Positions 4,200 to 40,519 are shown, counted from the first letter of the stretch. The stretch: DNA of 64,000 bases from Blasia pusilla (GCA_050084515.1 CM114271.1:11160001-11224000), one strand, 5' to 3'. Numbers and translations: made by a program. Notes: generated from the sequence alone by a model not told the origin.

Positions 4200-4419
4200 T
4201 GGCTGCTAGGCAACCCCCTCACAAGATGGTACACCCTTAGTTACACCATCATCTGAGCAAATAACTCCTCCACCAGCATGAGCAACCAACTCCACATGCC
4301 CAAGGATGCAAAATACTATTCTCCTCGCCCCCAACCGATGTCTCTACCCTCCCGGTAGCCATCAAGCTCATCACAAGGGGTGGAAGACCCATAGACATAG
4401 TCCAAAGTCGACGCTGCTC

Positions 4420-15836: not shown

Positions 15837-18800
15837 ATGGATAATTATGTGAAGCTCACTTGTGGCAGTCATCTGGCGGCCCTTCCTCAATCAGAAATCG
15901 TTCGACCGCAAGCTCTTGAGTCTTTCATAGTAGTGGATGAAATTTTTTTCTCTCTGTTCGATTTCTTCTCCAAATTGGAACCATCTTTGTATCCAAGGAT
16001 GTTAGGGTGGACGGTACGGAGGACATAATAGGTGAGACAGTCCAGCCAGTGACTGTAGACGGTAAAGTATGGAATCTCCTACCTCTAGCAAATGTCCAAT
16101 ACAGAGTTTACGGCCTGCCCCTGAATTCGACTCCAACTTCATACGCTCGTAACAATGTTGTTCTTCCTGAAGACATTCCGGATGTTATCAACCTCAGTGG
16201 ATTTGTCGAACACCAACCGGTCCCTCTGTCCGCCTACTCGTTCCTCTTGCGAGTATCAAGCAATAGTTTGCTTTCATCTCTGGCCTTGAAAATGTTCGAG
16301 CACATTCTTGTCGACGAGCTGCCGCCCACGTACGATGGTAATTGCATTTTTGAGTTGCCTCCACTTGCTGCTCCTGCTCAAAAGAAAGATGGAGGATGCC
16401 TGAAGGGTATGGACAGAAAGTCTGATTGTCATCGATGGTGCAGGCTTCAACGGACTAGTGCTTCAATTCCAGATGGTCCTTGGATTGTCTCCCGCCGCCA
16501 ATGCGTTGGAGCCTTGGAGTGTAGAAGTCCAGCATGCTCGTATCTAGAGCGCAACGGTCGAGTCAACACGTCGCAATTCCCCCCCAAGAATGCAGAAACT
16601 CCATACGAGGTCGGTGCCACCATACCACCGGGAGGCCATCGATGTCCTCATTGTCAGGCATCGCCCTTCTGCGTTGGACCGTGTCCTGCATACATATTTT
16701 TCATTGTCCACAACTTGGGCTCCATGTCAGAGTACACAAGGCTGGCAATTCATGTTGGCTCCCACACTCATCCTGTGATCAATGCAATTGAGAGACACAT
16801 CAAGGAGGATGTGGCAAAGAAAGTTGCCGAGGTCTACAAAAACTCTCCGGGTTCAAAGCCCCGAGTGATCAAGCTCACAACGGCATCACAAATTTGTGAA
16901 CAATTTCTTGGAATCCTTGGACAGGGCGAGATCACGGCAGCTGAGGAGAAACAACTCTGGGAAAATCTCGCTGATCCTGAATGCTTTCGGAATTTGCTAC
17001 GTCAAATACGAGTTCTGGATGGAAAGACGGCCAAAATGGATGCCATCGCTAGAATCAAGGCCAACTCCAGATTTCCATTCATTCAGAGATGGCAGTTGAT
17101 GGGCCAAGGAGGCGAGGGATCCAGGGCCTATGTCTTCAAAATATCAACCACAGGTCCGTCGAGTGGCCTTGATCTTATAGATCGAATGAGGGAAGGGGAA
17201 GATCTTTATGGCAGCTGGGTAAGCTTTGATATTTGCTATAGAGTGTTGAACGGATGGTTGATGATGGGTGCTCATGTTTATGACCATATGGAGAAGGGAC
17301 TCAAAACTATATTTGTCTGTGAAGTAAAGGCAGAAGACATTGGCAGTTTGAAGATGTGCTGGTTACTCTTATTGGAGGTGGTGAAGGAAAACAAAAGGCC
17401 ACCTCCGGAAATTTATGGGTTCATGGCGGACAATGCACAACCTGGGTGGATTGCTATCCGGGAAGTGTTCTGGGGTGGAGAGGTTCAGCCGGAGAGGGAA
17501 AGGTCGGATGCTTTCCATTGGCAACAGTCTGTGACCCGGTACACCAAATCTTGCATCAAGGAGAATAAGAGGACATCAAGGAGAATAAGAGGACAGAGCA
17601 TGTTACTCTACTCTAACGCTGCAAGGACAACAAAACCTTGAAGGAGGCCATGGAATGCCAGGAAGAACTTCATGGGTGGTGGAGGAAGCATGTGATTGAG
17701 GGGAAGTATAAAGAGTTGTGCTCTTGGTTGAGTTGGTGGATTGTACGTATGAGACAATGGGGAAACTTCATGCGGCAGGTGAGTTCACTATTTTGTCTTG
17801 TCAAGCTCACGCTGAGAATTGTTTGTAAAGTTGCAGCTCAAGTTGAGAAGCGTGGGAACTGTTGGGATTTCAAACCGAAGAAACCAAGCAAGCTGTCGGA
17901 TGCGACGGGTTGCATCTAGAATTTTGGTGCAACCCGTAGACAAGTATGCAAGTCGCATATATACATGGCCTGCAAATAGTTCAACCCGGATGGGTTTCGG
18001 ATGACTTGCACTTGGATCTTCTAGAGTGGCCATCGGTTCTTGCAACCCGTCTGAATCCGACGGGTTGCAGTAAGTGGGTTTAGGGTTGCAACACGTCGGG
18101 ACCCGACGGGTCGCAGAGTCGTTCATGGGATGCCTCGGCCTTGCAACCCGTATGAATCCGACGAGTTGCAGTAGGTGGGTTTAGGGTTGCAACACGTTGG
18201 GACCCGACGGGTCACAGAGTCGTTCATGGGATGCCTCGACCTTGCAACCCGTCTGGTTCCGACGGGTTGCAGTAGGTGGGATTAAGGTTGCAACACGTCG
18301 GGACCCGACGGATCGCAGAGTCGTTCATGGGATGCCTTGGCCTTGCAACCCGTCTGGTTCCAACAAGTAGCTTATTTCTTTGATTCCTGAGTTATTTTCG
18401 TTCCCTTCTAACATTGCCGTCGTTGCAGGGATTGAACATTCATGAAAATGCCCGCTGCCCCAACACAAATGGAGCAGAAAGTGTTCATTCCTCCTCGAGG
18501 TCCTCACAAGCATGCCAACAAATTTCACTTGTGGAGGCATGCCAACAAGACCAGGTGAGAGCAATGCTACAGTCTGCAGCATCCCATATCTTCCTCACAA
18601 AAGGCATAACAAAAGGAAGGGGGCCGTCCATCTACGAGCTCTATGTTAGGGCGGCTGTGAGATCTGGTGATGAAAAAATGTATGTGGAAGCCTTCAACAG
18701 GTGCGTAGCTTGAACTTCCCTCGAGCAAGACGTACATATTGGTGGGGATATTCGTGGGCGGGTTTCAAGACGTCCCATACAGATGGTGGTAGAGCAGTCC

Positions 18801-19931
18801 GAGCGAGACTCGTGGAGACCAGATAAGTATCTTGACTTCAGGCAGGTGAAGAGGCAGCATCGAGGAACGAATCCGGTGATTGATTTGGATGAGGAAATTA
18901 CGCCGCCTCGGTACTCGGGGACCCCGGACCCGTCCCAAATCCGTGATGGAGTTACTTCTCCAAAATCAGTGAATGTTTTATTTCAAAATCCCTCCGTTGG
19001 TGGAAGTTTGCAATATCCTGTCACTGGGGTGGTTCAACAATATGGGATTCCGGTAATGTAGGTGGATTGCAACCTAAAACGGTGGCATATATCTCGGAGC
19101 AACCCAGGACGTGGACCCACCTACAGGGCAGGATCTGATGGCATTAGGAGAGCATGCGGCACTTTCCTAAATAAGAACTGTACAAGGACTGGACGACCAC
19201 TGCCTGGGTTTTGGGGACTCAAAACCTTTGATCGTTTCACGAGGACCGGGGATCAATTGAAGTACTTCTTCTTCCCAAATGAATCTTGCGCTTTTCGAAA
19301 GTCTTATCCGGTTGCCATTGGAGCTCCGGGGAATACCCCCACGATTTGGCCCATCGCTGCAGGTACGAACTGCACTCAAGACGAAGTGGACAATCTTACA
19401 AGTGCCGGTTTCAGACTTGTAGACGGGGGAAGTTCAGAGCATGTTTGCATTACAGAGACCTTCGCATTTCGTATTCAACCCAAGATTGATGTCAACATGT
19501 ACCCGGAGAAGGTGGATGATCTCAATCCACTATTTCTGTTTGAGTGTAGAAATGGGGTGAAGAGAAACAGAATGTGTAGGCCAACGGTGGAGAGAGCAAA
19601 GCGAATTGCATGAGCTCGGGAGGCAAAAATGGAGATCATCGCCACGAAAGATGTCTTGAGTGGCAATGGAATAGGAAGGATGTATTGGGTCAGGAACAAC
19701 ATTGTAAATTCAAGTGTCACAGGGATGTATGTGGTGCACATCTGTTGCTTTCCCACATGTTCATGTGATGACTTTGTCCAAATAGAGACAAGTGGCAAAA
19801 GGTATTTCCCTTGTTAGCATATGTACTATGTGTTGCTCGTAGTTTTAAGAGAGTCGGAGGTAGGAGTAGGAATCCACCAACCAATTCTATCCCTCAAAGA
19901 AGTGCAAAGTATTTTAAACAAACCACTTTGA
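15837..19931 (+). pseudogene. MULE-type DDE transposase with N-terminal GCM/WRKY-like zinc domain and C-terminal SWIM finger, copy A
   Basis: CVGALEC...CPHC...C...HVGSHTHP; WVSFD; FMADNA; DAFHWQQS (CxxH-like); NTNGAESVH; CSCDDF...C*HMYY (SWIM). Intron 17779-18428 (GT-AG). Frameshifts, including a 20-bp duplication near 17554-17593. Confidence 0.8.
18041..18360. repeat. 101-bp tandem repeat, about 3 units, in the transposase intron, each unit carrying two palindromes
   Basis: Unit starts at 18041, 18142, 18243 and 18344 (partial). Confidence 0.9.
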
Positions 19932-20279
19932 GGATGCAAAATGAGGTTTTAGAGTGTACTTTTATTTTTCCTGAACCTTCACTTTGAGCTTGAACTCTAT
20001 TCAGCCCGGGGCAAATGATAGATTTTTTCCAGACCTTGGATGGAAAAAGTGACTGGTTCCACACTTATGATTCCACTGATTTTTCAGTTTTCTAAATTTT
20101 GTGCAATTTGCAACTCGTTGGACTCAGAGGGGTTGCCAAAATATGGAAGAGGAAAAAAAACCGTGGGACTGCTTAATAACTGAACAAAAAAGTGCAAAAA
20201 AATTCACACAAAAATTTTCCTCTCTTCAACCCAACGGAAACTCTCTTAAAAAAAAGTCTCTATTTCGGTTGAAGGTAGT

Positions 20280-20363
20280 TTCTCTCTCTCTCTCCTCTCT
20301 CCTCTCTCCTCTCTTCCTCTCTTCCTCTCTTCCTCTCTTCCTCTCCTCTTACCGCACCTCCCC
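20280..20363. repeat. Transposase-side terminus: (CCTCTCTT)n followed by ACCGCACCTCCCC
   Basis: Same CT-rich subterminal repeat as the other end (31850-31923 and 56704-56770). Confidence 0.7.
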
Positions 20364-23300
20364 AATACATCCTTCCTATTCCATTGCCACTCAAGACATC
20401 TTTCGTGGTGATGATCTCCATTTCTGCCTCCCGAGCTGATGCAATTTGCTTTGCTCTCTCCACCGTTGGCCTACATATTCTGTTTCTCTTCACCCCATTT
20501 CTAGACTCAAACAGAAATAGTGGATTGAGATCATCCACCTTCTCCGAGTACATGTTGACATCAATCTTGGGTTGAATACGAAACGCGATGGTCTCTGTAA
20601 TGCGAACATGCTCCGAACTTCCTCCGTTTATGAGTGTGAAACCGGCACTTGTAAGATTGTCCACTAAATCTTGAGTGCAGTTTGTACCTGCGGCGATGGG
20701 CCAAATTGTGGGGGTATTCCCCGGAGCTCCCATGGTAGCCGGATAAGACTTCCAGAAAGCGCAAGATTCATTTGGGCGGAAGAATTACTTCAATTGATCA
20801 CCGGTCCTCGTGAAACGATCAAAGGTTTTGAGTCCCCAAAACCTAGGCAGTGGTCGTCTAGTCCTTGTACAGTTCTTATTTAGGAAAGTGCCGCATGCCC
20901 TCCTAATGCCATCAGATCCTGCCCTGCAAGTGGGTCCACGTCCTGGGTTGCTCCGAGATATATGCCACCGTTTTAGGTTGCAATCCACCTGCATTACCGG
21001 AATCCCATATTGTTGAACCACCCTAGTGACAGGATATTGCAAACTTCCACCAACGGAGGGCTTTTGAAATAAAACATTCACTGATTTTGGAGAAGTAACT
21101 CCATCACGGATTTGGGACGGGTCCGGGGTCCCCGAGTACCGAGGCGGCGTAATTTCCTCATCCAAATCATTCACCGGATTCGTTCCTCGATGCTGCCTCT
21201 TCACCTGCCTGAAGTCAAGATACTTATCTGGTCTCCACGAGTCTCGCTTGGACTGCTCTACCACCATCTGTATGGGACGTCTTGAAAGGCGCCCACAAAT
21301 ATCCCCACCAATGTGTACGTCTTGCTCGAGGGGAGTTCCTGCTACGCACCGGTTGAAGGCTTCCACATAGAGTTTTTCATCACCAGATCTCACAGCCGCC
21401 CTGACATAGAGCTCGTAGATCGAAGGCCCCCTTCCTTTTGTTATGCCTTTTGTGAGGAAGATATGGGATGCTGAAGAGTGTAGCATTGCTCTTGCCTCGT
21501 CTCGTTGGCATGCCTCCACAAGTGAAATTCGTTGGCATGCTTGTGACAACCTCGAGGAGGAATGAACACTTTCTGCTTCACTTGTGTTGGGGCAGAGGGC
21601 ATTTTCATGAATGTTCAATCCCTGCAACGACGATAATGTTAGAAGAGAACGAAAATAGCTCAGAAGTCAAAGAAATAAGCTACCTGTCGGAACCAGACGG
21701 GTTGCAAGGCCGAGGCATCCCATGAATGACTCTGTGACCCGTCGGGTCCTGACGTGTTGCAACACCCAGGAAACACCTACTGCAACCCGTCCGATTATGA
21801 CGGGTTGCAAGAACCTTTGGCCACTCCGGGCTGGAAGATCCAAGTGCAAGTCATCCAAAACCCATCTGGGTCGAACTATTTGTAGGCCTTGTATACATGC
21901 GACATGCAGGCCTTATATACGGGTTGCACCAAAATTATGGATGCAACCCATCGGTTTCCGACTGGTTGTACACTCACGCAACCCGTCCGTTTTCGACGGG
22001 TTGCACACTCGGGCAACCCGTCCCATCCGAAAAATTGCTTGGTTTCTTCGATTTGAAATCCCTATAGTTCCCACGCTTCTCAACTTGAGCTGCAACTTTT
22101 CAAACAATTCTCTACGTGGGCTTGACTAGACGAAATAGTGAACTCACCTGCCGCATGAAGTTTCCCCACTTGTCTCATACGCACAGTCCACCAACTCAAC
22201 CAAGAGCACAACCCTTTGTACTTCCCCTCAATCGCATGCTTCCTCCACCACCCATGAAGTTCTTCTTGGCATTCCATGGCCTACTTCAATGTTTTGTTGT
22301 CCTTGCAAGGTTGGAGTAGAGTGACATGCTTTGTCCTCTTATTCTCCTTGATGCAAGATTTGGTGTATGGAGTCACAGACTGTTGCCAATGGAAAGCATC
22401 CGACCTTTCCCTCTCCGGTTGAACCTCTCCACCCCAGAACACTTCCCTGATAGCAATCCACCCAGGTTATGCATTGTCCGCCATGAACCTACAAATTTCT
22501 AGAGGTGGCCTTTTGTTTTCCTTCACCACCTCCAATAAGAGTTACCATCACATCTTCAAACTGCCAACGTCTTCTGCTTTTACTTCACAGACAAATATAG
22601 TTTTGAGTCCCTTCTCCATATGGTCATAAACATGAGCACCCATTGTCAACCATCCGTTCAGCACTCTGTAGCAAATATCAAAGCTTACCCAGATGCCGTA
22701 AAGATCCTCCCCTTCCCTCATTTGATCTATAAGATCGAGGCCTCTCGACGGACATGTGGTTGACATTTTGAAGACATAAGCCCTAGACATACGCCTCCCT
22801 GGCCCATGAACTACCATCTCTCAACGAATGGAAATCTGAAGTTGGCCTTGATTCTGGCAATGGCATCCATTTTGGCCGTCTTTCCATCCAGTACCCGTAT
22901 TTGACGCAACAAATTCTGGAAGCATTCAGGATCAGCGAGAAATGTGAGATTTTCCCATAATTGTTTCTCCTCAGCAGCCGGGATCTCGCCGTGTCTAGGG
23001 ATTCCAAGCAATTGTTCACAAATTTGTGATGTTGTTGTGAGCTTGATCACTCCGGGCTTTGAACCCGGAGAGTTTCTGTAGACCTCGGCAACTTTCTTCA
23101 CCACATCCTCCTTGATGTGTCTCTGAATTGCATCCGTCATAGGATGAGTGTGGGAGCCAACATGAACTGCTAGCCTTGTGTACTCTGACGTGGAGCCCAA
23201 GTCGTGGACAATGAAAAATATGTATGTAGGACACACTCCAACGTAGAAGGGGGATGCCTGACAATGAGGACATCGATGGCCTCTTGACGGTATGGTGGCA

Positions 23301-24160: not shown

Positions 24161-24554
24161 TCCGAGAAGATTCCATCGGGAGGAGACAAAGAATTGGTAT
24201 CAGAATGAGAATGTTTAATTTCTAGTGAATAGGGACTCAAATTCTCCTGACAGACTTTGACCGACAAGATGAAGTTTGGTAGTTGAAAATGTCTGACACA
24301 ATGGATTCAATTCTGTGGCAATGTGTCCAAGTCAGGTGAGTTGCAAAATTTTGGAATCAGAGATGTTGGTTGTGAAGCATGCACTTCTTTTTGTTGGAAC
24401 CCGTTGGAGTCCGTTGGGTTGGTACCCCCTTCTTGCCGACCAAAGGTTTTTTGAGTCAATTTTGCTAGCATCAAACACAAGATATCGCTTGCATATGCTA
24501 AGGCAACCAATCGTTGGGGACTTTTGCAGGATTTTCCAACTCAGGGTAGATCTT

Positions 24555-25320
24555 GTGACCCGTCAGATTGCAATGGGTTGCCTCGGAACTATGCGTTGTT
24601 GCATTGTTACTCGAGGGATAGAAAAGCGTGCAACCTGTCGATAACCAACGGGTTGCCCTGGTAGCTCGCCTATTAACCCAAGATAAGCAAAGCGTGCAAC
24701 CCGTGGGCTTCGGACGCGTTGCACACTGCTGCCTTACCTTGTAACGCTAACATGAAGGAAGTGTGCAACGCGTCGATCTCCGACGAGTTGCGCGGGTGCC
24801 GCGCCGTCTTGCCCAAAGACGGCAGAGGCGCGCAACTCGTCGGCCTCAGACGGGTTGCGCAATTGCCTCACCTTGTTACACTTACATTAAGGAAGCGTGC
24901 AACCCGTCTGTTTCCGACGAGTTGCGCGGGTGCCGCACCTTCTTGCCCAAAGACGGCGGAGGCGCGCAACCCGTGGACCTCAGACGGGTTGCGCAAGTGC
25001 CTCGCCTTGTAACGCTTACATGAAGGAAGCCTGCAAGCTGTCGGCCTCCGACAAGTTGCACGGGAAGCCCGCCTTGTTATCCCAAGATGAGGGAAGCGTG
25101 CAACCCACCGGAATCTGACGGGTTGCGTAGGTACCTCGCGTTCTTGTCAGAAGACGGCATAGGCGCGCAACCCGTCGGTCTTTGACGGGTTGCACGGGTA
25201 CCTCGTGTTCTTGTCTGAAGACGACAGATGCGCGCAACCTGTCGGTCTCTGATGGGTTGCCACGAGGATGGATGCCTTAACCCTCGGGAAGCGTGCAACC
25301 TATCAAAGCCGTCGGGTTGG
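24555..25320. repeat. Palindrome array in the divergent intergenic region, copy B
   Basis: Many GCAACCCGTC...GACGGGTTGC units. Confidence 0.9.
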
Positions 25321-25678: not shown

Positions 25679-28600
25679 ATGACGAGGAAAAAATCTCAAG
25701 CAAACAAGGCTGGGAGCTTCACTCCCAAGTCCATGAGGACTCCAGCGTCACAATCTCCAGGGCCTCGTTCGGCCAATGAGATAAGGCAGCAAGAAATCGA
25801 GGAGCAGGAAAGGGAAGCGGAGATGCACAAGCAGGAGCTTCTTGCAAAACGTGTAAATGAGGCGCTCGAAAAATAGAACGCAGAGGCTGAGGCGTCGCAG
25901 GCCTTGAAGAAAAGGATCGCCGACGAAAAGAGTGAAATGAAGTGTCTGGACGCGTCGGTGAGGAGAGCAGAATTGGCAAAAGCTCGGAGGGAAAAAGAAA
26001 TTGCCATTGAAGAAAGCCCGGCCCGTCCAACCGAAAGTGTTGAGATGCAGGAAATGTCCCAGATGAACTCCGGGGACACAATCAATATAGCAAAAACGGC
26101 CAAAGTTCAAGTGACAGACAATCAGGTCATGAGGACCGCCAGCGTGGAGATGGTAGACATTGCTGAAGAAGCAGGAGAGCGGTCATCCTTGTCCCTAAGC
26201 CTGGCGGAAGAAATTGACCTCTATCGGATCGACGAGTTTCCAGTGGACTTGCGTATTTCTTGTCCCAGCGATTGGTCGCCAAGACACCGACTGAATCTTC
26301 GAGTGGGTAAGAGAGGATCTATGTTCTTTGAATTATGTGAAGGCCCATGTTGCAATTCATTGGCAATTTAGTGTAGCTTATTGACCTTGTCCCCATTGTG
26401 ACGGGTGGTAAAGCAGATGGCATTGATGGAGGGCCAGAACGCCGCGAGAATTCCACTTTGCCGATTGCGAACTATGGAGTACGTTCGCGAAATTTAGTCT
26501 GACGAGGATATTGCGAAGCTGAAACAATCGGCAATGACAGCATCCTATGTCGACAGCTTCCCTCCGTTCTATGCTCAGCCTTACGATGATCATGGAACCC
26601 AAGCGCTGGTTACGGAGGAGGACTTGGAAGCGCTTGACATATTCTGGAGGATGAGAGATCAGGAATTTAGAAGGGCGATAGAGGGGACGGAATTCAGCTG
26701 GATGCAGAACCTATATTTCTTCATCTAGGATGGAAACCACAGGTTCATAGCGTGGACCCAGTTTTGCCCAAACTCATTGGAGGCACATTTTTGCGTGAAG
26801 GCAGTGGTGCTACATCCATACCCTCATCACATGGCCACGGTGGAGATGGCCATGCATGCCATGAACACGTAAGTTTCCTCTTGTTGCAAACCGTCGGACT
26901 CTGACAAGTTGTCCATCGGACTCCGATGGGTTGCAAAATTTAGCTCGTTGCTTCCATTCCGACCATGAGCTGTGACGACCTTTTGGAGTCCGACGGGTTG
27001 CAAGAACCCATGTACCTTGCAAAATTTATAATATTGAGTTCGGATGTGTAGGATTGTATCGGAGGGGAATGTCACCCACCACTGGATCCACGATTGCGAT
27101 CGGGTGAAGAAAGTGCTAACGACGCACCCGGTAGAGTACAAGGGGTTCTTGGGCGACGCCCTTGTAAATGAGATGGTGGCAAAGGGTGCTCAAATAAAAA
27201 AAAAGACTTGGGCAAATAAGTTTATTTCCCAAGATGCAGCCGTGACAATCCTTTGCTGGTCAAAGATAGAGGCCGCCAAGAAGAGCGCTGCATTAGAGCT
27301 GGAGCGGAGGGAGAAAGTGTCTATGTCTGAGCATGCAAAGTTCATCCATGCTGCAGTATCTGCAGCTACGAAGTACACGGCAAGCAAGATGCAGCGCTAC
27401 ATCGCCATTCTCAACCCCGAACTTGGCCCCGATTTCTACAAGGAGCTGAAGGCGATCATCAAGCGCCAGCGGAAGAGGGATGAAGATCCGTAGGGTCGGA
27501 TTGGGGAGAAAGTATCTGTGGATCGCGTGCATCGATTATCCTTGTCTGGAATTAGCAAATTTAGGAGAATCCGACTGATGAAATTCAGTCTCGAGGGCAC
27601 AGAGGCCCAAAAGAGGGCGATACACCATCCTCTGGGTGTCTATGATCCAGTGATCTCCCACTGGCTCTGTGAATGGTCATTCTGGGACGCGTTGCAGATT
27701 CTCGGGAAGTCCATGCTCGTGAGTCTCGAAGCGGAGCTGAAAAGAATAGAGCCAGTTCCGGAGGAAGCAAACCTGGAGAGTGCTGAAGATTTTGAACTTT
27801 GGCTTGATGACATACGGGATAAGCCCATAAAAAACCCAGGTTTCAGGACGATGTTCAAGGATCGGATCCTCCCTCAAGCAAACCTTGACGAAGAAATAGA
27901 GGCGAAAAAAGGGATTTCGCAAAGAAGAAGCGAGATCGTCAGGAGCAGGCGGCCAATGCATCTCGACTTAGAGCTGCCCAACGCATGGTGTTCAGGTACC
28001 TCGTCCATTGTAAGAATGCAGGTACATGGCGAAAAATACCGGCAGCCTGCAAATTGTGGGCTTCTCCGCCTGATGGAAAGACATTTTCCATGTACGACAT
28101 GGAGATGGCTCAAAGCATGTTCGATTGGGAGGTGGAGAATTTCCCGATTTGGGTGGACTTCAACAACCCTGAGGACATAACTGAGAAAGATCTACGCCTG
28201 CTCTATGATGCAATGGCCGCAGGTAGGGACGACATCCCCAATTTTGTGCACCCTGAAGACTTTTTTGAAGGAGATGCGGAGGAATAAGCCCTCGAGACAG
28301 CGGAGTTAGTGTCCAAGGTCGTCACTGCCAAGGACAAATCTACAGCGGGTCTCAAAGACAAGGCAAGGGGATCAAAGAATTCCGAGGCCGAGTCTTCCCA
28401 GAGAGAGGCTGAAAATTCAAGGCGAGAGCCGAAATTGTCCGGGCGAGCGGGGAGAGAGGGTCGGACCAGGTCCTCCGCAAAAAACACTCCACCAGAGTGT
28501 GAGGTCATAGAGACCCCAACAAGCCGACCGCAGACTCGGGAGAAGCGGAAGCAAAAGGCGCCAGGGTTGTCCCAGGGAGCAGACCAGGATGTGGAATACA

Positions 28601-30065
28601 CTCCATCATCCTTGGGAAGACATAGAGAAACAACGACCCGAACAAGCGTTATCCTTCACTACATGAATCTTCAGGATGAGCTGAAAAGTTTCAATTCCCA
28701 AGCGTCGACACCCGCATTGAAAAATTGACAACGCTGGGACGGAAGCTTCAACGAAATGGGCATGCTCCTTGGACGGTCCATGGGGAGGTTGAAGAGGTGG
28801 CGGTGGATCTCCTCGTCGCTGATTTGCCCTCGGGGTTGCGCTTGTGGGACGAGAATCCGTCCGACGGGGTCCCAGACAGGAATGTCCTGATCGCGCTCTT
28901 GTTTTCCTTTGCAAACGCTTTTCTCAGTGACAGGGGCTGTTTTTTGTTTTGACTGGAGGGAGCGAGGACAAGCTCTTCAACCTCTAGTGCGTCAAGAGGT
29001 CCCTGAAGTGGAGGACGGCGCAATCGTGGGTCCTCAAGAACGAGTACCCACTCCGATCTACGACGAGTCAAATTCGGGTAAGGGCTCTAAATTTGTATCC
29101 AAATTGTCTTTCTCCGACGGGTTGCATCTCTGCATGCAACCCGTCGGATTGTTTGAGCTGGAAATTTCAGTGGTCCAATCCATCTGAAAGTGACGGGTTG
29201 CAAGTGCTAATGCTTTTGCAATTTTTTGGAATGATGCAACCCGTCTGAAAACGATGGGTTGCTCTTAGCCAACCATGGGATGCTCTAAGCCAGCAATTTG
29301 TCGCCTTCCGACGGGTTACTCATGGACAAAAAATCACAAGACACTTGTAAAACAACCCGTCGGACTCCGACAGGTTGCTCCAATGTTAGGATTATAAAGA
29401 AGTTCTCTGGGGTTAAGCGAAGTTCTTTGGGGACGTGTTGCACATTATGTCACCATACTGAGAGTAGACCAGTGGCCAAGTAGCTCTTTGTTGTTGTTGA
29501 CATTGTTTCCAACGTGCTTCTTTACAGATGGACCACTCCTATGTTTACTGCTTTGTTCGGCCCGAGCACAACTTCCAGGTGTTTAAGATCATGGATCCTG
29601 TGGATCCATGCTCTGATGGGTACAGCTTAGATAGTTTATACAATTCCCCCCCCCGGGGAATTTACATGCAAGACGGTACCCCATTACTTGGAGGAAGGGA
29701 AAAGTCGCCAGCCCTGATGCAAACACTCATCGAGCTCTGCTCAAGGCCGGGTGACTTGGTGTTCGACTTAGTGGGCCTTTCAGGGGGGGAGTATCAGAGG
29801 CGACTGGCAGAGTGGCAGGAACATTCTTTGCCTTGAGGGAAGGCAGCAACTATTTGACCTTTGCAAGGAGGCAAAGGCAGATTACGACAAGCTAGTTGGG
29901 GCGTACAACTCTCCTCCGGAACCGAGAGCTCCGATTCCAGACCCACGAGCTCCGGTTCCAGACCCACCATTGGTAGTGACACCATCGTCACTTCCCACGA
30001 TTTCGAAAATGAGGAGGGCAAGGCCGACAGTAATCTTGGAAGAGCTCTCGGACGATGACGAGTGA
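25679..30065 (+). pseudogene. ParB-like plus beta-class N6-A/N4-C methyltransferase-like gene, copy B, 4 coding exons
   Basis: Predicted introns 26307-26404 (acceptor mutated), 26869-27051 and 29078-29527. Motifs DGNHRF, VDLLVADLPSG, EKSPALMQTLIELCSRPGDLVFDLVGLSG. Confidence 0.75.
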
Positions 30066-30119
30066 GTTCAAAGAACTCAAGGACCCAGCTTGACTGCAGC
30101 GTTTAGAGTAGGGATTTAT

Positions 30120-31230
30120 TTGATGACGAGGCAAAAGATTTCATAGAATAGATCAAATGTACAATTCCGAGCTTCTTTTGGATGTAATAAAGGACAAGAT
30201 TTTTTTGAACGATGATGGTGTTGGTAAAAGTTTGTTGAATATCTTTTTTGGTCTTGTCGAATGTGATCGTCTATGTACTCCGAGGACTTCTATTTTGCAA
30301 CCCGCCGGATTTCCATGGCTTGCAACTTTTCACTTTTTGACCACTGCACCTTTTTAACCACTACCAAGCAACCTGTTGGATTTCGACAAGTTGGCTGCGT
30401 GAGTGATTGGACTCTTTCGGACTCTTTAGAGGCATTCTGGCGGGCTTCTTCACTTTGGCACCTTCCCCTAGTATCGTCAAACAAGGTGTAGGCTTCTTCT
30501 CTTCTCTAAGACATGTTGGATTCCTACTACCTGTGGGATTGCCATCATGGTATTTCCAAGGACATAGCACATATTGATATTGGATGGGTGTCACGTTCCA
30601 GAGCGTACAAGATATACTGCCAAGGAAGGCGGTGGGACTCGAATCAGGTTACATGGGACCGTTATGGTGTACCTAGGGGGGGCCAAGGCTCTCGAATTCG
30701 CCAACATTTTCGATCCCCGTCTACAATCGGCCAGAGGAGCCACTTGTGTCCCAACACATTCCTTTTGTAGAGGAACCTAGGAGAGTTAGGAGTAGATTTG
30801 TAGATGACCAGGCTGAAGAAATCATAGACTAGATCAAATGTATATTTCTGAGATTCCTTCGGATGTAATAAAGGAGGAGATTTTTTCGACCGATAATTGT
30901 GTTTGTAAAAGTTTACTGAATATTTTTTGTGGACTTGTGGATTGTGTTCTTCTAGCTACTCAGAATTACAATTTTGCAACCCGTATGATTCCGACGGGTT
31001 GCAACTTTTCACTTTTTGACCAGTGCAACTTTTAACCATTTCCAGGCAAGCTGTCGGATTCTGACAGGTTGGCTGCTTGAGTGATCGGACTCTTTCCCTG
31101 TGAGACCAACTTCTGAAGTATTGTGGCCGGCTTCTTCACTTTTGGCTCGTTCCCCTAGATTCGTCAAACCAGTTGTAGGCTTCTTTTCTTCTCTAAGATG
31201 TGCAAGATTCCTACTATCTGTCGGATTGCC
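30120..31230. repeat. Diverged tandem duplication, period about 680 bp
   Basis: ATAGATCAAATGTA-like block near 30148 and 30830; similar ORF starts at 30157 and 30838; also present in copy C (57300-58450). Confidence 0.75.
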
Positions 31231-32117
31231 ATTTCGGATTCCCAACCAATTGGATTTTCATGGGTGCAAGGTGGAATGGAATCACTGTAAAATTTTGACG
31301 GGTTGGGAGGGATGCAGCTTCTCGGTTTCTGAGATTTAGGATCTGAATGAAGGGACATCAGTTCCTCTTTACTCCAGACAGCTAACAATCTTTTGGTTCA
31401 ATTATCGTCTCATGTGTTCACATTTCACAAAGTTGGTCTTGACTAGACACCATTCATAACCAAAAAAACGGTGGTTATGAGGCAATTCAGGGGAGGCCAT
31501 GATGCAGGCAACAATCCCTGCAAAAAGAGAGGTTGGCATCATACCGATGCGCATCCGGGTGGTCCTCCAACAAAAATACCCATGGACACTGCTTATTGTA
31601 GACCGAGACAGGCAATGTTAAGAAACTTAGGCTCACATGGAGAGTGATGGAAAAATGTTTGTAGTGGTCTAATGATGTCTACTTTTTTTTTGCCCCCTGG
31701 AAAAAGGAGGTTTCTTTAGGCTCGAATGTGGACCACTACCTACTCTCTTCTAAAGATTTCATGAATTTGAAAGCAAACAAAAATTTCAAATATATCACAA
31801 AGTTATGAAGAGGGGAGGCGGATTTGGCCCTTTTTTTTTAAGAGAGACTGAGAGACTCTCCTCTCTTCCTCTCTTCCTCTCTTCCTCTCCTTTCTTCCTC
31901 TCTCTTGCCAGAATACCAGCCCCCCTTTTATTTATTATCTCTTTTCCTAAAGTTGGGCCCGCGCAAATGAGTCACCCTAAAGAGGTTTAAACATGGGAAT
32001 TTCATTTTCCTAGGCTCATTTACTTAATACTAATAAAACTCTCTCTTACACTTGATGATAGAGGAGTTTACATAGCGGATGATTTTACTATACGACAGCG
32101 TGCTTATAAGCGAGAAA

Positions 32118-32570
32118 TCCACATTTCTTCTTAACAGATAACCCACGATTCACAGAATTATGATAGAGGCGCGAAATAAGTTTTCTGCAACTCTTTGCTA
32201 GCGTTATTAGGTGGATGGCTCCTCGCAACATTCTGAACTAGAGTTCCAATCTGACTTATCCTAGAGGTTGCCATTCATTCCAATTGGATCTTAAGGTCCA
32301 ATTTGCCCATAGTTCAATGACCCCGTTCCATCAGATCTTAAGATCTGAATTAAGGACATTTCGACCTCCGCGTGCCTACTAGCGGACAGTCCATATTTCT
32401 TCTTAACAGATCAACCATGATTCAAAGAATCGCAAAGCAAGTTATTTTGAACTTTCTACTGACTTTATTAGGTGGATGGCACATCGCCACATTCAGAACC
32501 AGAGTTCCAATCGGACACACCCTGGAGGTTGCCACTCTTCCCAAATGGATCTTAAGGTCCAATTTTCCCT
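32118..32570. repeat. Two diverged direct repeats of about 190 bp
   Basis: ATTTCTTCTTAACAGAT...TTATTAGGTGGATGGC...GGATCTTAAGGTCCAATTT at about 32118-32305 and 32390-32565. Confidence 0.75.
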
Positions 32571-35500
32571 GTGCAAAAAGATGATTATATTTTTGTCCCA
32601 CTTTCCATTGAATGGCTAACAATTAATTGGCACTTCGACGTTATGGTGCAAATTTCATATTCATGCAATGGAATTCTGCATCGGTGATGTAGTGTATCTA
32701 CATGATGGATCATCCATCTCTATTGGAAGAGCTAGAATCATGGACACCAATTTTGAGAGAAATAGTCCACAGCATACCACTTGGTACGAACTCCTTGTAC
32801 ATGTGTTTGAAGGAAGTCTTCGAAAGTTCAATAAGCAATTACAATGGAGAACCTCTACCCGATTTCATTGGAGCATTCATCACAGCCTCGTAATGGAGTT
32901 ACAACAACTAATACATGTGGTGGACGTGAGGATGTGGAAGGAGGGCCTCATTGCCCCACATAGTACTCAAAGAAATTTTTCTTAAAAGATTTGAAGGGAT
33001 CAGAGCTTCTTATTGGTTCAAGGTGTATTACCAAAAGCTTTGATTCACATGAGACCCAACCTATGTCCTTCTTTGACAACCAATGGCAACCGTGGGTGTG
33101 CGTAATAATTGATGAGTCATCAATTATTACGTATGGAAGAAGGCTACAAGATATGGTGGGAATGTTTGCAAAATATCCCAGATATTTGATTACAGAAAAA
33201 TACAATGATACCATGGATATTAGGAAGAGGAAGCGCTCAGCTTGCAATACCTCCATCGACGTACAAGTTGCGGTTCCCATGATTGGTCGTATGGAATCAA
33301 TCCTTTTACAAGTGCAACTTACAGAGAAAAATGGATGTCTAAATATCGGTGAGGGAATTGTTCACTACGTCAATCCAAACGAAAAAGTTGGTGGTCAAAT
33401 ATTAGGGGATCACCATGTTGGCGTATTCATTACCAACATCACGAGCCATCTTACATGCTACAAGGTTCTTGAAAGGAACTTAGTTATATGGCCTACGCCA
33501 TCATGTACTATTAAAGAAGGCCGAGACTTATGGACATACTACTTGGAGTGTTACACCATGTCTTGAGGGGCCGTTGTAGCAATAGGAGGCAAGAGGAAGA
33601 GAGCTTACACGTACACTTATCGGTGTAAAAAGCGATGTCTACCAAGAGCTACCAAAACAAACAAAAAAAGCTAATAGAGGAAGATATATCACAAGTGGCA
33701 TCAAAAAATTGTTGCGGAAATTTTGTTTTTCAATATACGTTGAGAGATGTTGTTCGTTCAAGCAGAGAGAAGTATTGGAACAAATCCTTTCAGGAAAGAA
33801 GGGAATCACTCCACGCCATGGTCCATTCATCTTACTTCATTGACGGAGGAAGGGTTGTGCAATTGGAAGGTGGAACGGTGTGCCTCCCGGGTTGGCAACA
33901 GGTCCATGGTCTTGGAAAACAAGCTTCGAGGATGAAGTAAGAAATGTCAGAGATGGCAAGATGCGGACAAGGCATGGGAACCTGAGAAGAAATTGCATAA
34001 CCCAAAGGACGGCGCAAGCGGTGGAAACGGTAAAGCTGATAAGTAATTAAGGAGACTTGAGATCAGATGCCCCACAAGGAAAGAACAATGTCAGATGGGA
34101 GAAGAGAGGAATTGATTCGGTTGCCTCAATTTTTCTCCTGGAAGTATATACGAGAAGTAGTCAATAAGGAAGGAGGGAAATTGGGATTAGCGGGAGTCTC
34201 GCAATCAACTATGAATCAAATCAAAAAACAATACTTCTCCAATATTGCGATTCACAAATCAGGTGATAAATTTTCTCGCTGTGCGATATATGCAATACTA
34301 AAGTCTCTAGGAAATACTGCATCAACAAATGAGGAGAAGGCTATTGTTATGGAACGGGCAATTGAACATGATGACCTACAAAGGTCTCAAAGGAGTTTAT
34401 ATTACACTTCGCGAGCAAAATCCGTGCGCCATCCCGAGTCTTATCTTTGCCTAATCCACGACAAAATGGATAGTTTCAAAACAAGCTTGCCAAGAGCATG
34501 GCAACAAACCAAAGATTTGGCTCTAGCTCAACCGTTTCCAATTACTTATTCAAGTAAATATTTTGGAATAATACTCCATTATACTAGAAAATGGTTTAGG
34601 GTGCAAGTGTCAGTTAGCAAGTTTGTAAGGCTATCTTGATCCTGTTCACGTAATAGGACTTAAGTTCCCATTTTTAATCCACACCCAAAATTGTTTCCCA
34701 AGGAGAAAGAGATCGATCTATGCCTCATCCATTAATTGGAACTGAAGTTCTCATAGGGCGTTACATTTCTTATATTTCTTGCCTAATGGAACTTGCGGAC
34801 GTATGTGTTACTTGCCGCACGTACCCAGTTTGGAGAAATGGTACTTTCTTTAGGTACTTGAATATGAAGTTGAATTAACTTTAACTCACTCTTTTTCTTA
34901 TTGCAGGTATCTTGACTCATGGGCATGGACCGTGTGCAATTGCTCAATTTGACATAGGAGTCTACAAGCATAGATCTAATTGGATAATTGGATCATTGGA
35001 AAAGTTGTTTCGGAGTTTGGAAAATCCCCGCGGTGAAATACTGGAATTCTTGGATGGGCCCGACCTAACTCCACTTCATAGTCAATTCTTAAAAGGGAGG
35101 AAAGCTTGATGGATTACTCCGTGCAACCTATAGGCTTATGGAGTTTGCCGAAGAGGGACCAAGGAAGGTGCCTAAGATTCTCACAGAGTTTGCCGAAGAG
35201 GGACCGGGGAAGCTGCCTAAGATTTTGAATCTACAAATGGTCAACTCTGGAAAAGATAACAAAAATATTTATGTCATGGCGTACTTGGCTCTTCTTGTTC
35301 ACAGGAAGGTATTCGAAGAGATTCACTTGGCTTTTCTCATCCCTGGGCACACGCATGAAGATGTTGATGCTATGTTAAGCAAGTTTTTGTGAACTTTGCG
35401 GCGACACAATGCATACACCTTGAAAGATCTTGCGACAAAATTTGTTAACTCCATGTCACCGAATCCAGCACCATAAGTGGTTTAGGACATTCCCGACTTC

Positions 35501-36027
35501 AAGGAGTACTTGAAAGGTTTCATCAGGCCTAAGACAAAAAATCAGTGGTATGGACTCCAGAGGCCAGGTCGATTCCGATTTACTAGATCTCTGGATGGTA
35601 TGCCCATCATGCATTACAAGATGTATGGTTTCGATAATGAATGGTTGCCGAATGAGCGTGGGTATGATATGTTTTTACATCATGAAATTATTGGACATCC
35701 TCTTATCCCTACTAGGAATCCAAAGCACTTACTGCCCACACCCTTGAAGGTATTTTATGATGTGAAGAAAGGTGTATCTCAGTTCATTGAGTACTTTGAT
35801 AAGATGGGAAGCAAGTCTTCCGGAGGCACAAAGGTGGAGTTCCAACAACTAGCACGGCAGTGGAGGAAGACGATTGAGGAATTGGAGTGATTGTTTCCTC
35901 ATGAAAACCTTAAGGACAAGGTTCAAAACCTGCGATCAAATACAAGACAATAATAAATGAAGATTCTTCTACCAAAAAGAGGACCAGTTTGATAGCCCAT
36001 GACATCGCTTCATCGTTCTCTAAGACA

Positions 36028-36376
36028 TGTTAGATAAATACATTTTAGATAAAGGTGTTCGACTTAATATGTGTTAAAGGAACTACCTAAATATTGCTAC
36101 TCTTAGCAGTCTGACATCTAACCTAAGACACTTGACCACTTGGCTAAAAGGGCCAGTTGGTGAGCTGACTACTTGGCCACTTGGATATTTGGCTACTTGG
36201 CCACTTGGCCACTTGGTCACTTTGCCACTCAGCCACATACTATCTTGTCTCTAGCCACTATCCAGATTAGTATATAGTCTGGGGCTTGAATAAACATCAT
36301 ACTTGAAGTTCTCCATAAAGTTTAGGCGCAGCTTTACCATTGTATCATTATGTATACATCTCTCATATTTCTAACA
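36028..36376 (+). repeat. copia 5' LTR (349 bp)
   Basis: TGTTAGATAAA...TTTCTAACA; internal CACTTGGC-like tandem. Confidence 0.95.
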
Positions 36377-36387
36377 GGTTATGGGCC
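36377..36387 (+). other. Primer binding site, internal tRNA-iMet fragment type
   Basis: GGTTATGGGCC directly after the LTR, the Drosophila copia-type PBS rather than TGGTATCAGAGC. Confidence 0.75.
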
Positions 36388-39300
36388 TAAATGGGAATCA
36401 CGATGGTTTCCATGTTGGACTCTTTGATGGTCCTAACTGGGAAGAGTGGAAGAATCGTGTTTTCAATCTTCTTGTTTACAGAGATTTATGGAACGCAGTT
36501 GTTAAAAGAGTATATAATACATCCGTGTCAGATGCGTCACCTACCTCTCCTTCTGAAACTACAGATAAAGCACCTCAAGTATATGTTCGTCAACGTGTAC
36601 TTCAAACACGGACTATTCAGCAGAATTCAGCTCAAGAAATATGGGCCTGCCTATATCGCAATTATGATACGACATGTTCATTCTCTCTACTACACTTACA
36701 AGCATCCATGTACAAACTCACTGTTGAATCTTGCAGATCATCTCGAGATTTTCTGTCACAACTCAAGATTATTGCAAATAATCTTGCATCCATGAGATCT
36801 CCTGCTTTTCAGACACATCTCTATTCACTTTTGCTATTAGCAGACTTCCTGCTGAATACAAATCTCTCATTCATGTATTGATGCAAAAAGATAAACCTTC
36901 TTTTGACGATCTTCAAACTAGAGTACTGTATGATTCTGAACTAGATAAACCTTCCAATTTTGAAAGTATTCTAGTTTCCAATTCTATTGGTAATTCTACC
37001 AGGAAACGTCCATTTCGGTCTATATCTACTCATTATCAAAGAAACATTCCTCAGAGGAATGGAAAACACCTTCTTGTTACATTTGTAACGAGAAAGATCA
37101 CATCTCCAACAAATGTCCTAACAGAAAATTTCTCAAGAAATTTCGTGAGTGCTGCAAAACTCAACCAGAAGATACCTCATCTTTACTACTCAATACTTCA
37201 CCTATCACTCAAGCATTAACATGCTCCACATCGAGGAACTACAACCGGATGAACCACTCTATCTATTCATGATACAAAGATCCTCTACATCTACTCTCCC
37301 AAATCTTTCCAAACTTTGGATCCTTGATTCTCGTTCAAATTCCCATGTTTTGTCAAAAGAGAATCGTTCTCTAATTTCCTTCCTATTTCTCCAATTCTCA
37401 TTTCGGGAATAGGCAATGGCAAAATATATGCTCTGACTACTAGGAATGTTCAATTAAAGCTTTTGTCAAAGGCTCTTTCGAATTACATACTCTTTCCAAT
37501 GTTTTGTTCATTCCTACAGATAAAGACAATATTGTTTTCTGTGAAGAAACTTGCTGAAAACTCTATAGATACCCTTTTCTATTCTCACAATATGTCTTTT
37601 GAACTCATCAAGCAAGGTCATTGTTTAGGTACAGGCTTTGCCATGCATGGCATATATCTAATTGAATGTCAATCTTGTACTCCATCGACAATTTTGATAG
37701 CCAGAAGTTCATCCAATCTCTGGCACAATCGTATGGGACATCTCAATAATCAGCATTTATTGCAACCACATCAAAAGAAAATGGTTCAAGGTCTAGATCA
37801 TGTCGATGATCTCAATTTTTGTACAAGATGTGCTAAAGGCAAGCTCATCAGGCAACATATCACAGGAGATGGATAAGATCTTCCTGTTCAAAAGGCTCTA
37901 GATCTGATTCACAATGATCTGGCCGGACCAATGAAGACACCCAGTATTGGAAACGCCTACTATTTATGTACTTTTCTTGACCAATATACAAAGAAATCCT
38001 TTGTCTATATTCTTCACAAGAAGTCAGATGTCTTTTCTACATTCCAGAAGTTCAAAATCATGGTTGAGAAAGAAACTGGCCTCCAGATTCGTGTTCTCAG
38101 AACAGATGGAGGTGGTGAATACATAGACTCTTCTTTCCAAATCTTTCTTCAGACTTTTGGTCTTCTTCATCAACACACAGGAAGAGATTCTCCTATGCAG
38201 AATGGATCTGCTGAAAGACTCAACCGCACACTACAGGAAAAGGCAAGATGTATGCTCATTCACATGCGCCTTCCTATATCATTTTGGGGAGAAGCAATTG
38301 TTACAGCTAACTATCTTCGGAACTTGAGTCCTACTCAAACTCTTTCAACAACACCTTTTGAAGCTTGGAGTGGTCTCAAACCTACTCTCACACATCTTTG
38401 AGTGTTTGGATGTCAAGCATTTGCTCTCATTCCAGATGAGAGAAGAAGAAAGATGGATTCTACGGGTGAAGAATGTATATTCCTTGGTTATCAGATTGGT
38501 TCTAGATGTTATAAACTTTTGAATCCCAATAAAAAACGTGTTTTTCTCAGCAAAGATGTTGTCTTCAATGAAGATACTCCTTTCTCCTTCTCTCCTGTTT
38601 TTCACTCTACTTACACTCCATTTTTTTATTATTTCCCAGTAGAAAACTTTGAACCGATAATGTCCCTAAAGCGAAGAAGAAAAACTCTGATTCATACACA
38701 TTGAAATAGTGGGAGATACTTCAAGAGAAACAGTCTTTGTTGCTTTAGAGAAATCCATGGGACATCTGCCCACGTCTTTTCATCCTAGGCGATCATCACG
38801 AACATCTGTACCAGTACATATATATGATGCTGCTTGCTCAAACATTCTTCTCTCTTCTTGTATCCAATCTGATCCACTCAGTAGAACAGAAGTCCGCTCT
38901 AGATCAGATTCTCATGAATGGAAAACTTCTATGGAAGCTGAAATTGCCTCTCTTCATGAAAACAAAACCTGGATTCTTGTGACAAATCCTAAAAAGCGCA
39001 AGTCATCCACAGATACTACCAATATAGTCTCTTGTAAATGGGTTTTTAAGATCAAGCGGTCTTCTTCAAGAGGTATTCTCAAGTACAAAGCCAGGCTGGT
39101 AGCCAAAGGTTATTCACAGAAAGAAGGAATTGATTACAAAGAAACATTTTCTCTTGTCATAAATATCACTTCTCTCCGGATGCTTTCCATTCTTGCTCGC
39201 AATCTTGAACTACATCAAATGGACGTCAAGATTGCTTTTCTTCATGGTGATCTACAAGAAATCATATACATGCATCAACCTCCCGGTTTTGAGGTAACTC

Positions 39301-40430: not shown

Positions 40431-40519
40431 GTAGGATATGCAACCGAGTGGGAGATACGACTCTTTTTAGTAGACAATTTGCATGTTCTTCTGCTAGATT
40501 ATCCTAGCTCGGTCATGAG

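Follow-up and report, generated by a model that had tools for sequence, protein, structure and literature searches.

Transposons that carry chromatin or DNA-modification tools of their own are rare, and they are informative on how elements and host silencing compete in an arms race. Among plants, VANC is the only case to have been worked out; its targets “often form tandem repeats” in the non-coding DNA of the VANDAL elements that are hypomethylated (PMC5735166). The PAG genes of the red-algal giant Plavaka elements have so far only been described: PAG2 combines a PF01555 methylase with SET, PAG3 combines a ParB-like domain (a call based on weak evidence, HHpred E 0.29) with a 2OG oxygenase, and homologs of the red-algal accessory genes are stated to occur in Mutator elements of Chondrus crispus (10.1101/2025.02.11.637652). 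Here we describe a 64,000-nucleotide stretch of Blasia pusilla DNA (GCA_050084515.1 CM114271.1:11160001-11224000; “the window”, whose positions are counted from its first letter), which holds three decayed copies (A, B and C) of a transposon best read as Mutator-like. They carry a spliced accessory gene, long maintained by purifying selection, whose predicted product ends in a methylase-like domain with a non-canonical catalytic region, and their non-coding DNA contains arrays of a 27-bp palindrome.

The accessory gene of copy A lies on the plus strand, starts with an ATG at 25679 and stops with a TGA at 30063-30065. Its four exons (Table 1) are separated by introns with GT..AG borders, which are retained in every copy that has those borders. 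A first-pass annotation, made from the sequence alone, had claimed three copies of this four-exon gene; they were found at A, B and C (B lacks exon 4), together with a fourth, exon-2 fragment (D), and all the peptide motifs quoted for exons 2, 3 and 4 were located in the window. In a self-BLAST of the window, B was 85.7% identical to A over 2233 bases and 80.5% over 1932 bases, C 77.5-82.7% over 1251-1940 bases, and fragment D (10554-10108) 78.7%. Since kilobase-long alignments at 78-86% identity are involved, the relationship of the copies is far beyond chance. The predicted protein has about 1,200 residues, of which the final 270 or so form the methylase-like domain, divided by intron 3 into two halves. 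The exon-2 motif reads FFI*DGNHRFIAW in A, FFIWDENHRFMAW in B, FFIWDGNHTFMAW in C and FFIWDGNHRYMAW in D; VDLL(I/V)ADLPSG of exon 3 is present in A and C, with AGLPSG in B, and of the two exon-4 blocks, that of C is unbroken and that of A has a frameshift. Exon 2 of B (13835-13377) is an open frame without interruption, and exon 4 of C (59023-58514) is an uninterrupted frame of 170 codons. Intron 1 (26307-26416 and its counterparts in B and C) is less divergent between copies (p 0.06-0.15) than the synonymous sites of the flanking exons (dS 0.31-0.54); it contains no palindrome, and may harbour a conserved regulatory or splicing element.

All gene copies in the window are dead relics. Premature stops occupy 13 positions of the frame defined by A (six in A, six in B and two in C), and 12 of them are private to a single copy; at the sole common position (A 28285) B has CAA where A has TAA and C has TAG, as independent C-to-T changes would produce. 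Copy A also has 1- to 2-base deletions near 26277, 27904, 28714 and 28945 and a surplus G near 29783, and these frameshifts are private to it. Whole-genome DNA reads carrying the same species label were mapped on copy A at >=85% identity. Many of them restore the missing bases (+A behind 27904 in 197/417, +C behind 28714 in 367/499, +G behind 28945 in 275/555) or have one base less at 29783 (444/1101). The mapped reads numbered 31,915 in total, of which 48 reached >=99% identity, and the read ratio implies roughly 600 family copies at >=85%, mostly 85-95% alike. A joint from 26874 to 29353 in the DNA reads could have marked a deletion derivative; it was discarded, the alignment having jumped between palindromes that belong to different introns. 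The majority sequence of the three copies is open in exons 1, 2 and 4 and not throughout exon 3; because part of exon 3 is covered by two copies only, a dependable reconstruction would take more than three copies.

The divergence among these relics nevertheless follows the reading frame. The ratio of nonsynonymous to synonymous substitution rates (dN/dS), a measure proposed in the first-pass annotation, is 0.22-0.30 for the A/B/C pairs in frame (exons 1-3, 827-994 codons, dS 0.31-0.54) and 0.85-1.33 when the same columns are read in the two shifted frames, and third codon positions have 2-2.8 times as many changes as first or second positions. By region, the ratio is 0.17-0.21 in exon 2, 0.17-0.22 in the N-terminal methylase-like half and 0.25 in exon 4 (A vs C; 95% upper limit 0.45). 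Because dN/dS is low in frame and not in the shifted frames, these values indicate that purifying selection maintained the accessory gene for a long time, during the divergence of the element lineages. Most of the divergence thus stems from lineages in which the protein mattered, and a captured, dead fragment is excluded.

Known sequences contain almost nothing of this protein family: in 1.84 billion representative proteins, a HMMER scan returned just four matches (E 7e-6 to 1e-3), namely one 758-residue hypothetical protein of the moss Ceratodon purpureus and three short metagenome proteins, one of which belongs to a cluster labelled “DNA modification methylase” by its source. Ceratodon has four paralogs in total, with locus tags on four chromosomes, all annotated as hypothetical proteins; they share both methylase-like halves and the middle region (BLASTP E 9e-5). 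The spliced exon 3-4 protein is collinear with them (YPLRSATS... and ...HNFQVFKI vs NPLPMASTL...HNFNIKVY). Searches for homologous proteins with exon 4, at longer and near lengths, found none, and those with the Ceratodon methylase region found only its three paralogs. No relatives were detected in metagenome contigs scanned with the methylase alignments, and nine pieces compared with NCBIfam gave nothing relevant.

The first-pass annotation had read the end of the spliced gene as similar to beta-class amino-methyltransferases. This is borne out for the C-terminal half, encoded by exon 4, on which Pfam, PHROGs, a profile search of the PDB and hhalign agree. Exon 4 of copy C matches PF01555 (N6_N4_Mtase) at model positions 165-219 of 221 with E 0.006 and 17 bits (the curated Pfam cut-off is 26.7 bits), and the relatives score 15.7-22 bits, three of the four distant relatives matching the same model region. 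DNA-methyltransferase families of PHROGs match exon 4 with E 9e-5 to 1e-3, and a family profile run against the PDB had DpnA (5hek, 5hfj) at the top (E 0.0013-0.0015), followed by CcrM (0.16). With hhalign, the C-terminal half aligned with phage and plasmid PF01555 proteins at a probability of 87%, and with four PF01555 templates (including phiKO2 Gp52, which itself scores E 3.9e-44 to PF01555) at 95.0%, with E 3.6e-8 over 64 columns. Weak tblastn matches of exon 4 (E 6e-3 to 1) occurred in 122 phage and 230 plasmid records; among the matches listed (15 from phages, 40 from plasmids) every annotated feature is a DNA methylase, while 3/15 and 4/40, respectively, have no annotation at the match. 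We regard the C-terminal half, on these alignments, as homologous to the beta-class PF01555 DNA methylases, and not as a demonstrated member of them.

The identification is far less secure for the N-terminal half, which is encoded by the end of exon 3. An hhalign comparison with the four templates (E 0.0013, probability 18%) placed VDLLIA(D/G)LPSG on IDAIITDPPYY, upstream of the C-terminal half, so that on this weak alignment the motif IV region precedes motif I, as in beta-class enzymes. The Ceratodon proteins can be aligned to the window copies across this half (IDMIFADAPEGL... vs VDLLIADLPSGL...). Canonical beta-class enzymes have the catalytic tetrapeptide (D/N/S)-P-P-(Y/F/W) and the S-adenosylmethionine (AdoMet) loop D-P-F-x-G-S-G-T-T, and both are absent from the family. 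The tetrapeptide position is occupied by ADLPSG in A and C, AGLPSG in B and ADAPEG in 4/4 Ceratodon proteins, giving a family-wide AD(L/A)P(S/E)G without an aromatic residue. The loop reads DLVGLS(G/R)AS, DWSANTGAS, DLSASTSAS, DLTTSTRTS or DLSASTEAS where the methylases aligned to it have DFFMGSGAT; its first glycine is replaced (by L, N or S) in every family member, and in the three metagenome relatives S, R or E takes the place of the second. The annotation as “catalytic motif IV” is thereby weakened. With motif IV altered and the glycine loop eroded, canonical N6-adenine/N4-cytosine activity is doubtful, and the domain, to judge from its residues, most likely does not work as a canonical N6-adenine/N4-cytosine methylase.

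Exon 2 had been assigned to ParB, an identity for which profile, structure and search gave no support. The block IWDGNHR(F/Y)(M/I)AW is kept over the four exon-2 copies, with DGNHR exact in two of them, DENHR in B and DGNHT in C, and is preceded by RIPLCRL...DEDIAKLKQS. It recalls the ParB/Srx N-terminal signature (DGxHR), a motif which does not establish membership by itself. Two exon-2 copies gave no match to ParB_N (PF02195) in Pfam at E<=10, and three copies gave no ParB match in PHROGs or NCBIfam. A profile of all four copies retrieved SET and SASH1 only from the PDB and no ParB/Srx protein, and hhalign against a genuine plasmid ParB_N + HTH_ParB protein returned a probability of 0.14%. 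A tblastn search of phages with exon 2 gave four irrelevant Acinetobacter phage records at E 5, and scanning genome and viral contigs with the exon-2 alignment yielded no relatives. The methylases of phages and plasmids that were inspected include no fusion with ParB, and when four records were scanned with PF02195, one ParB_N + HTH protein came up, which has no methylase. The remaining leads come from a protein-language-model Atlas, where a cluster with ParB_N in 11% of its members and clusters of DUF3723 and DUF6551 were retrieved, in weak agreement. The Ceratodon gene models start within the region equivalent to exon 3, and hence neither show nor exclude an upstream ParB-like exon.

A feature absent from the earlier annotation, and new here, is a palindrome repeated throughout the elements. 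Its half-site CAACCCGTCGGA occurs 147 times in the window (<=2 mismatches) vs 4.0 expected and a maximum of 10 in shuffled sequences; full sites, CAACCCGTCGGA-N-TCCGACGGGTTG, number 73, and none appeared in 20 shuffles. The bases flanking the search pattern are G in 86% and C in 81% of cases; since these edges are conserved and the sequence beyond them is at background, the unit is a discrete 27-bp palindrome, with four CpGs. Each element has at least 22 palindromes, and 72 of the 73 full sites lie inside the three elements. This target-like motif is repeated in tandem within the element's own non-coding DNA, a trait of the VANC type. All sites inside the elements are non-coding: they occur in the divergent promoter, form arrays that fill two introns of the accessory gene (2 and 3), and recur in the 3' region and in the gaps of the transposase gene. 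The arrays were confirmed by the tandem-repeat program TRF, with periods of 64-134 bp. Intron 2 measures 183 bases in A vs about 750 in B, because its palindrome array has expanded. Element A further contains a direct duplication of about 450 bases in its 3' region (30098-30545 and 30782-31232, 79% identity), which is single-copy in C (57726-57319).

The assignment of the element to the Mutator-like transposons stands in part. Two transposase-like frames, long, interrupted and 79-93% identical to each other, are divergent from the accessory genes of A and B; for C, where the same arrangement had also been claimed, the transposase would fall past the end of the window. No Pfam family, and hence no MULE/MuDR domain, was found at E<=10 for the 566- and 462-residue frames or for the downstream pieces, and neither the transposase frame nor the N-terminal part of exon 3 matched the PDB. 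A SWIM finger (PF04434) at 19698-19877, with X at one stop, remained below threshold (E 0.018, 15 bits vs a cut-off of 19.6). The case for a Mutator-like element is made by this SWIM match, by the motifs recognised by eye and by shared terminal repeats, and the class of the transposase that travels with the spliced gene is not backed by Pfam. Elements A and C share an end, consisting of a CT-rich tract and then ...ACCAGCCCC, at about 31925 and at 56704 (C, minus strand). The B end (20304-20349) is 93.6% identical to the A end (31856-31901) over 47 bases, in the orientation of inverted termini, and both finish in CCCC. This is indirect evidence for inverted termini with GGGG/CCCC ends, pieced together from different elements, as no copy has both ends in the window. 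Mutator-like is therefore the best reading of the element, and not a proven one.

Several further observations concern the element ends. Just inside each end seen there is a CT-rich, microsatellite-like tract (CTCTTCCTCTC...; 20281-20350, 31856-31910 and 56724-56774), and the A-side transposase frame continues into the first of these, on the opposite strand, as a Glu/Arg-rich tail. The head-to-head arrangement of A and B (19689-20363) is not a simple inverted duplication: the B-side transposase reaches its own terminus past the SWIM-like finger, and the A-side transposase is cut at about 20361 against the B terminus, as would be expected had one element inserted into, or beside, the other.

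Table 1. Coordinates of the accessory genes, palindrome arrays, transposase-like genes and element ends in the window
Feature	Position	Strand	Remarks
Accessory gene, copy A	25679-30065	+	exons 25679-26306, 26417-26868, 27052-29077, 29528-30065; pseudogene
Copy A exon 2, DGNHR block	26417-26868	+	motif; read earlier as ParB-like
Copy A exon 3 end, N-terminal half of methylase-like domain	28803-29077	+	VDLLVADLPSG at motif IV position
Copy A exon 4, C-terminal half of methylase-like domain (motifs X, I to III region) and proline-rich tail	29528-30065	+	
Accessory gene, copy B	14574-10597	-	exons 1-3, ends after exon 3; without exon 4
Accessory gene, copy C	62882-58511	-	502-column deletion inside exon 3
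Fragment D, extra exon-2 copy	10558-10105	-	more diverged; joined to the cut end of B at 10597
Palindrome array GCAACCCGTCGGA-N-TCCGACGGGTTGC, divergent promoter of A	24397-25319	.	~67-bp period
Sister promoter arrays	B 14928-15543; C 63255-63964	.	~67-bp period
Intron 2 palindrome array of B	12679-13356	.	~64-bp period, 11 units
Intron 2 palindromes in other copies	C 61122-61667; A 26887-27000		short remnant in A
Intron 3 palindromes	A 29113-29377; C 59103-59476		
Palindrome array, non-coding gap of B-side transposase gene	18039-18357	.	101-bp period; A-side counterpart 21680-22025
Palindrome near element end	20111-20135		
Transposase-like gene beside B	15941-19877	+	Cys/His block, DDE-like motifs by eye; SWIM-like CxC..CxH 19758-19830
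Transposase-like gene beside A	24199-20361	-	3' end cut near 20361
Cargo-side end of element A	31856-31925	.	CT-rich tract, then ...GCCAGAATACCAGCCCC(CC)
Transposase-side end of element B	20281-20363	.	CT-rich tract, then ...CACCTCCCC; abuts truncated A-side transposase

Expression was followed in three RNA-seq runs carrying the same species label, mapped on window copy A. The mapped reads (186, 236 and 213) are nearly all below 95% identity, and so come from other family copies. In the three runs, exon 4 was covered to a depth of 20-39, most of exons 1-3 to a depth of 0-3, and the first mates fell mostly on the minus strand, which corresponds to sense transcripts in the usual stranded libraries. 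At the exon-4 acceptor, 8 and 9 reads (two runs) begin and continue upstream into a different exon, and after the stop codon 24, 30 and 12 reads (three runs) leave into a different 3' untranslated region (UTR). The exon-4 acceptor is thus in use somewhere in the family, which answers in part the earlier suggestion that splicing be confirmed by RNA-seq; the RNA does not cover the four-exon transcript as a whole. The expressed exon-4-like transcripts (29526-30074) may stem from a diverged subfamily or from an element-derived host gene.

The reading of the locus that we favour, at slightly better than even chance, is that of a Mutator-type element with a selected accessory gene, a methylase-derived non-canonical domain and self-recognition via the palindromes. 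The element would be about 12 kb long and belong to a family of several hundred copies in a genome of land-plant, probably bryophyte, appearance, the three in the window having decayed, and each element would encode a transposase and a divergently transcribed four-exon accessory gene. The domain would have its source in a prokaryotic or viral methylase, with the introns acquired afterwards, and would more likely be a DNA- or base-binding, or otherwise altered, module than a canonical methylase. The accessory protein would bind the palindrome arrays of its own element, via the N-terminal DGNHR region or another part, and once bound might change the epigenetic state or the expression of the element in the manner of VANC. 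Self-recognition appears to us to be the most likely role of the protein.

A number of results weigh against this proposal. Recognition of the palindromes by the protein is purely inferred, and the sites could equally be those of the transposase. The window holds no intact gene copy. No joints for introns 1-3 were present among the RNA joints listed, and since the exon-4 reads have another upstream exon and another 3' UTR, the related gene that is expressed may be another one, possibly of smaller size. Each single-sequence match to PF01555 scores under the Pfam cut-off. The N-terminal half has no match in Pfam or PHROGs; its profile retrieved no methylase among nine hits in the PDB (ribosomal uS2 was there at E 0.06), and hhalign with a two-sequence template gave E 0.17. 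AlphaFold2 predicted no usable fold for exon 2 on the four-copy alignment (mean pLDDT 36.7), and a prediction for one Ceratodon protein with the family alignment (pLDDT 29.5) confirmed no fold. Finally, the motif IV loop has kept its D, P and G across 75% sequence divergence, which could mean active, non-canonical catalysis and not a dead loop.

In the full reading of the first-pass annotation, the protein is an active, ParB-targeted N6-adenine/N4-cytosine methyltransferase acting on the element's own DNA and derived from a phage or plasmid ParB-methylase fusion. The beta-class homology of the C-terminal half and the strong purifying selection are in keeping with it, as are the position of motif IV, whose D, second P and G are conserved between the window family and Ceratodon, the DGNHR motif (exact in two of the four exon-2 copies and one residue off in the other two) and the Atlas clusters with ParB_N (11% of members) and DUF6551. 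However, where motif IV should have its aromatic residue there is S in the window family and E in Ceratodon, all members have lost the first glycine of the AdoMet loop and the three metagenome relatives the second as well, seven independent tests gave ParB no support, and the phage and plasmid methylases inspected include no such fusion; we consider this reading unlikely. A further position, that the methylase likeness is a chance or convergent one in a single 60-residue stretch of a protein with an unknown fold, could appeal to the facts that only about 60 columns reach significance, that the N-terminal half fails most tests and that both structure predictions are of low confidence. We hold it to be very improbable, given that four members match the same PF01555 region independently while being just 30-40% identical, that Pfam, PHROGs and the PDB agree, and that the best N-terminal alignment falls on motif IV, in beta-class order.

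The palindromes allow a different interpretation, as binding sites of the transposase or as spreading structural hairpins, with the accessory protein acting elsewhere (on host chromatin, or as a cofactor like the second gene of MuDR). Mutator transposases bind repeated sites in their ends, and palindromes are indeed also present in the non-coding parts of the transposase gene and near the element end (20111-20135). The sites are nonetheless spread across the whole element and not concentrated at its termini, and the largest arrays occupy the shared promoter and the introns of the accessory gene, a placement comparable with that reported for the VANC targets and for the repeats at the red-algal ParB-like gene; we regard this interpretation as rather improbable. 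Mutator-like elements also often capture fragments of host genes, and the relatives in Ceratodon are annotated as ordinary hypothetical proteins, so that a Pack-MULE-type capture without function for the element might be envisaged. Such a capture is, in our estimation, extremely improbable: the gene is full length, with its own TATA-bearing promoter and conserved introns, and occurs in every copy seen, dN/dS between the element lineages is 0.2-0.3 at a dS of 0.3-0.5, and the four Ceratodon paralogs are on four chromosomes, as expected of transposon copies.

Beyond the self-recognition proposal, a bolder one can be formulated, which we put forward as a doubtful but instructive speculation. Giant transposons of Archaeplastida, from red algae to bryophytes, might share an ancient module composed of a ParB-like reader, a prokaryote-derived modification fold and palindromes. 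Here the first two would be fused, and the protein would load on the 27-bp CpG-rich sites, either writing N4-methylcytosine (4mC) or N6-methyladenine (6mA) or shielding CpGs from the 5-methylcytosine (5mC) of the host. If true, silencing would be countered in a sequence-specific way by a system with no relation to VANC, from which host enzymes might also have come.

The window is eukaryotic, and the surroundings of the elements are rich in transposons. Frames of long terminal repeat (LTR) retrotransposons are located at 46781-48319 (minus strand; zinc knuckle, aspartyl protease and reverse transcriptase, RVT_1 E 1.3e-28) and at 3372-4205 (minus strand; reverse transcriptase, E 1.6e-20). An open frame at 1088-1828 (minus strand) ends with a PHD finger (PF00628, E 1.6e-8) and may belong to a host gene or to a retroelement. 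After the end of element A, at 32000-41000, there is an AT-richer block with a GC content of 0.38-0.43 vs about 0.50 elsewhere.

Compared with prokaryotic and phage PF01555 enzymes, the accessory protein has, on the weak alignment of its N-terminal half, the motif order of DpnA (5hek), CcrM (6pbd), phiKO2 Gp52 and the methylases of lambdoid phages, with the IV region first and X-I-II last, and a helix plus the block GD.V.D....S..(A/T)(S/T)...A...(G)R....E aligns with them over 60-64 columns. It differs from them in having AD(L/A)P(S/E)G instead of DPPY and an eroded glycine loop, in an identity of 25-34% over the aligned stretch, and in that its domain is split by an intron and is part of a 1,200-residue protein. 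Among eukaryotic enzymes, the bdelloid N4CMT is reportedly a beta-class methylase of bacterial origin, with the same fold type in a nuclear genome. DN4MT1 of Marchantia, another bryophyte, likewise represents a prokaryote-type amino-methylase fold in a eukaryotic nuclear genome; it retains a canonical TSPPY and is a host gene required for sperm function (10.1101/2021.02.12.428880), whereas the family described here lacks the canonical motif and is transposon-borne.

In the survey of Iyer et al. (2016; PMC4738411), fungi, algae and haptophytes have clades of unpermuted, DpnA-like methylases, chlorophytes and chytrids have Dam-type enzymes fused to ParB-HTH, and DIRS1 elements contain a methylase domain that is inactive. 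The DIRS1 retrotransposons resemble our case in carrying a methylase domain with disrupted catalytic residues, and the chlorophyte Dam-type enzymes are a precedent for the fusion of a ParB-type domain to an adenine methylase in eukaryotes (PMC4738411). Neither shares its methylase group (PCIF1-like and Dam-like group 2 there), element class or host with our case (PMC4738411), and the methylases listed in these passages do not match the present family. The likeness to VANC of the Mutator-like VANDAL elements of Arabidopsis is of another kind: in both cases the element encodes an extra protein, and short motifs are arranged in tandem in its own non-coding DNA. Binding and hypomethylation have been demonstrated for VANC, whereas here they are inferred, and we claim no sequence kinship. 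VANC is not known to have a methylase-like domain.

The closest precedent for the present family is the red-algal preprint. Both there and here, a DNA transposon carries PF01555-methylase and ParB-like accessory genes (ParB being a motif only in our case), “tandem arrays of inverted repeats” accompany the ParB-like gene, and most copies are degenerate. Unlike PAG2 and PAG3, which are separate proteins, the accessory protein in the window unites both motifs; Pfam found no SET or oxygenase domain in it, its host is plant-like, with the nearest relatives in a moss, and its neighbour is a Mutator-like transposase. The HMMER matches, one moss and three metagenome proteins, gave no sign of a close relation in sequence to the red-algal genes. 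The first-pass annotation knew of no description of such a gene as cargo of a Mutator-like element (MULE); this has to be narrowed, since the preprint cites homologs in Chondrus Mutator elements (10.1101/2025.02.11.637652). The literature consulted had nothing on a land-plant or bryophyte element with such a gene combination, nor on DUF3723 with ParB. The Blasia family adds a land-plant-type example to the red-algal elements and VANC, with a selected gene, a catalytically odd bacterial-type methylase fold and a 27-bp palindrome as a testable candidate target. It also illustrates how a prokaryote-type methylase fold may be retained in a eukaryote with a rewritten catalytic loop, and raises the question of whether such a protein serves as a reader or shield or as a writer.

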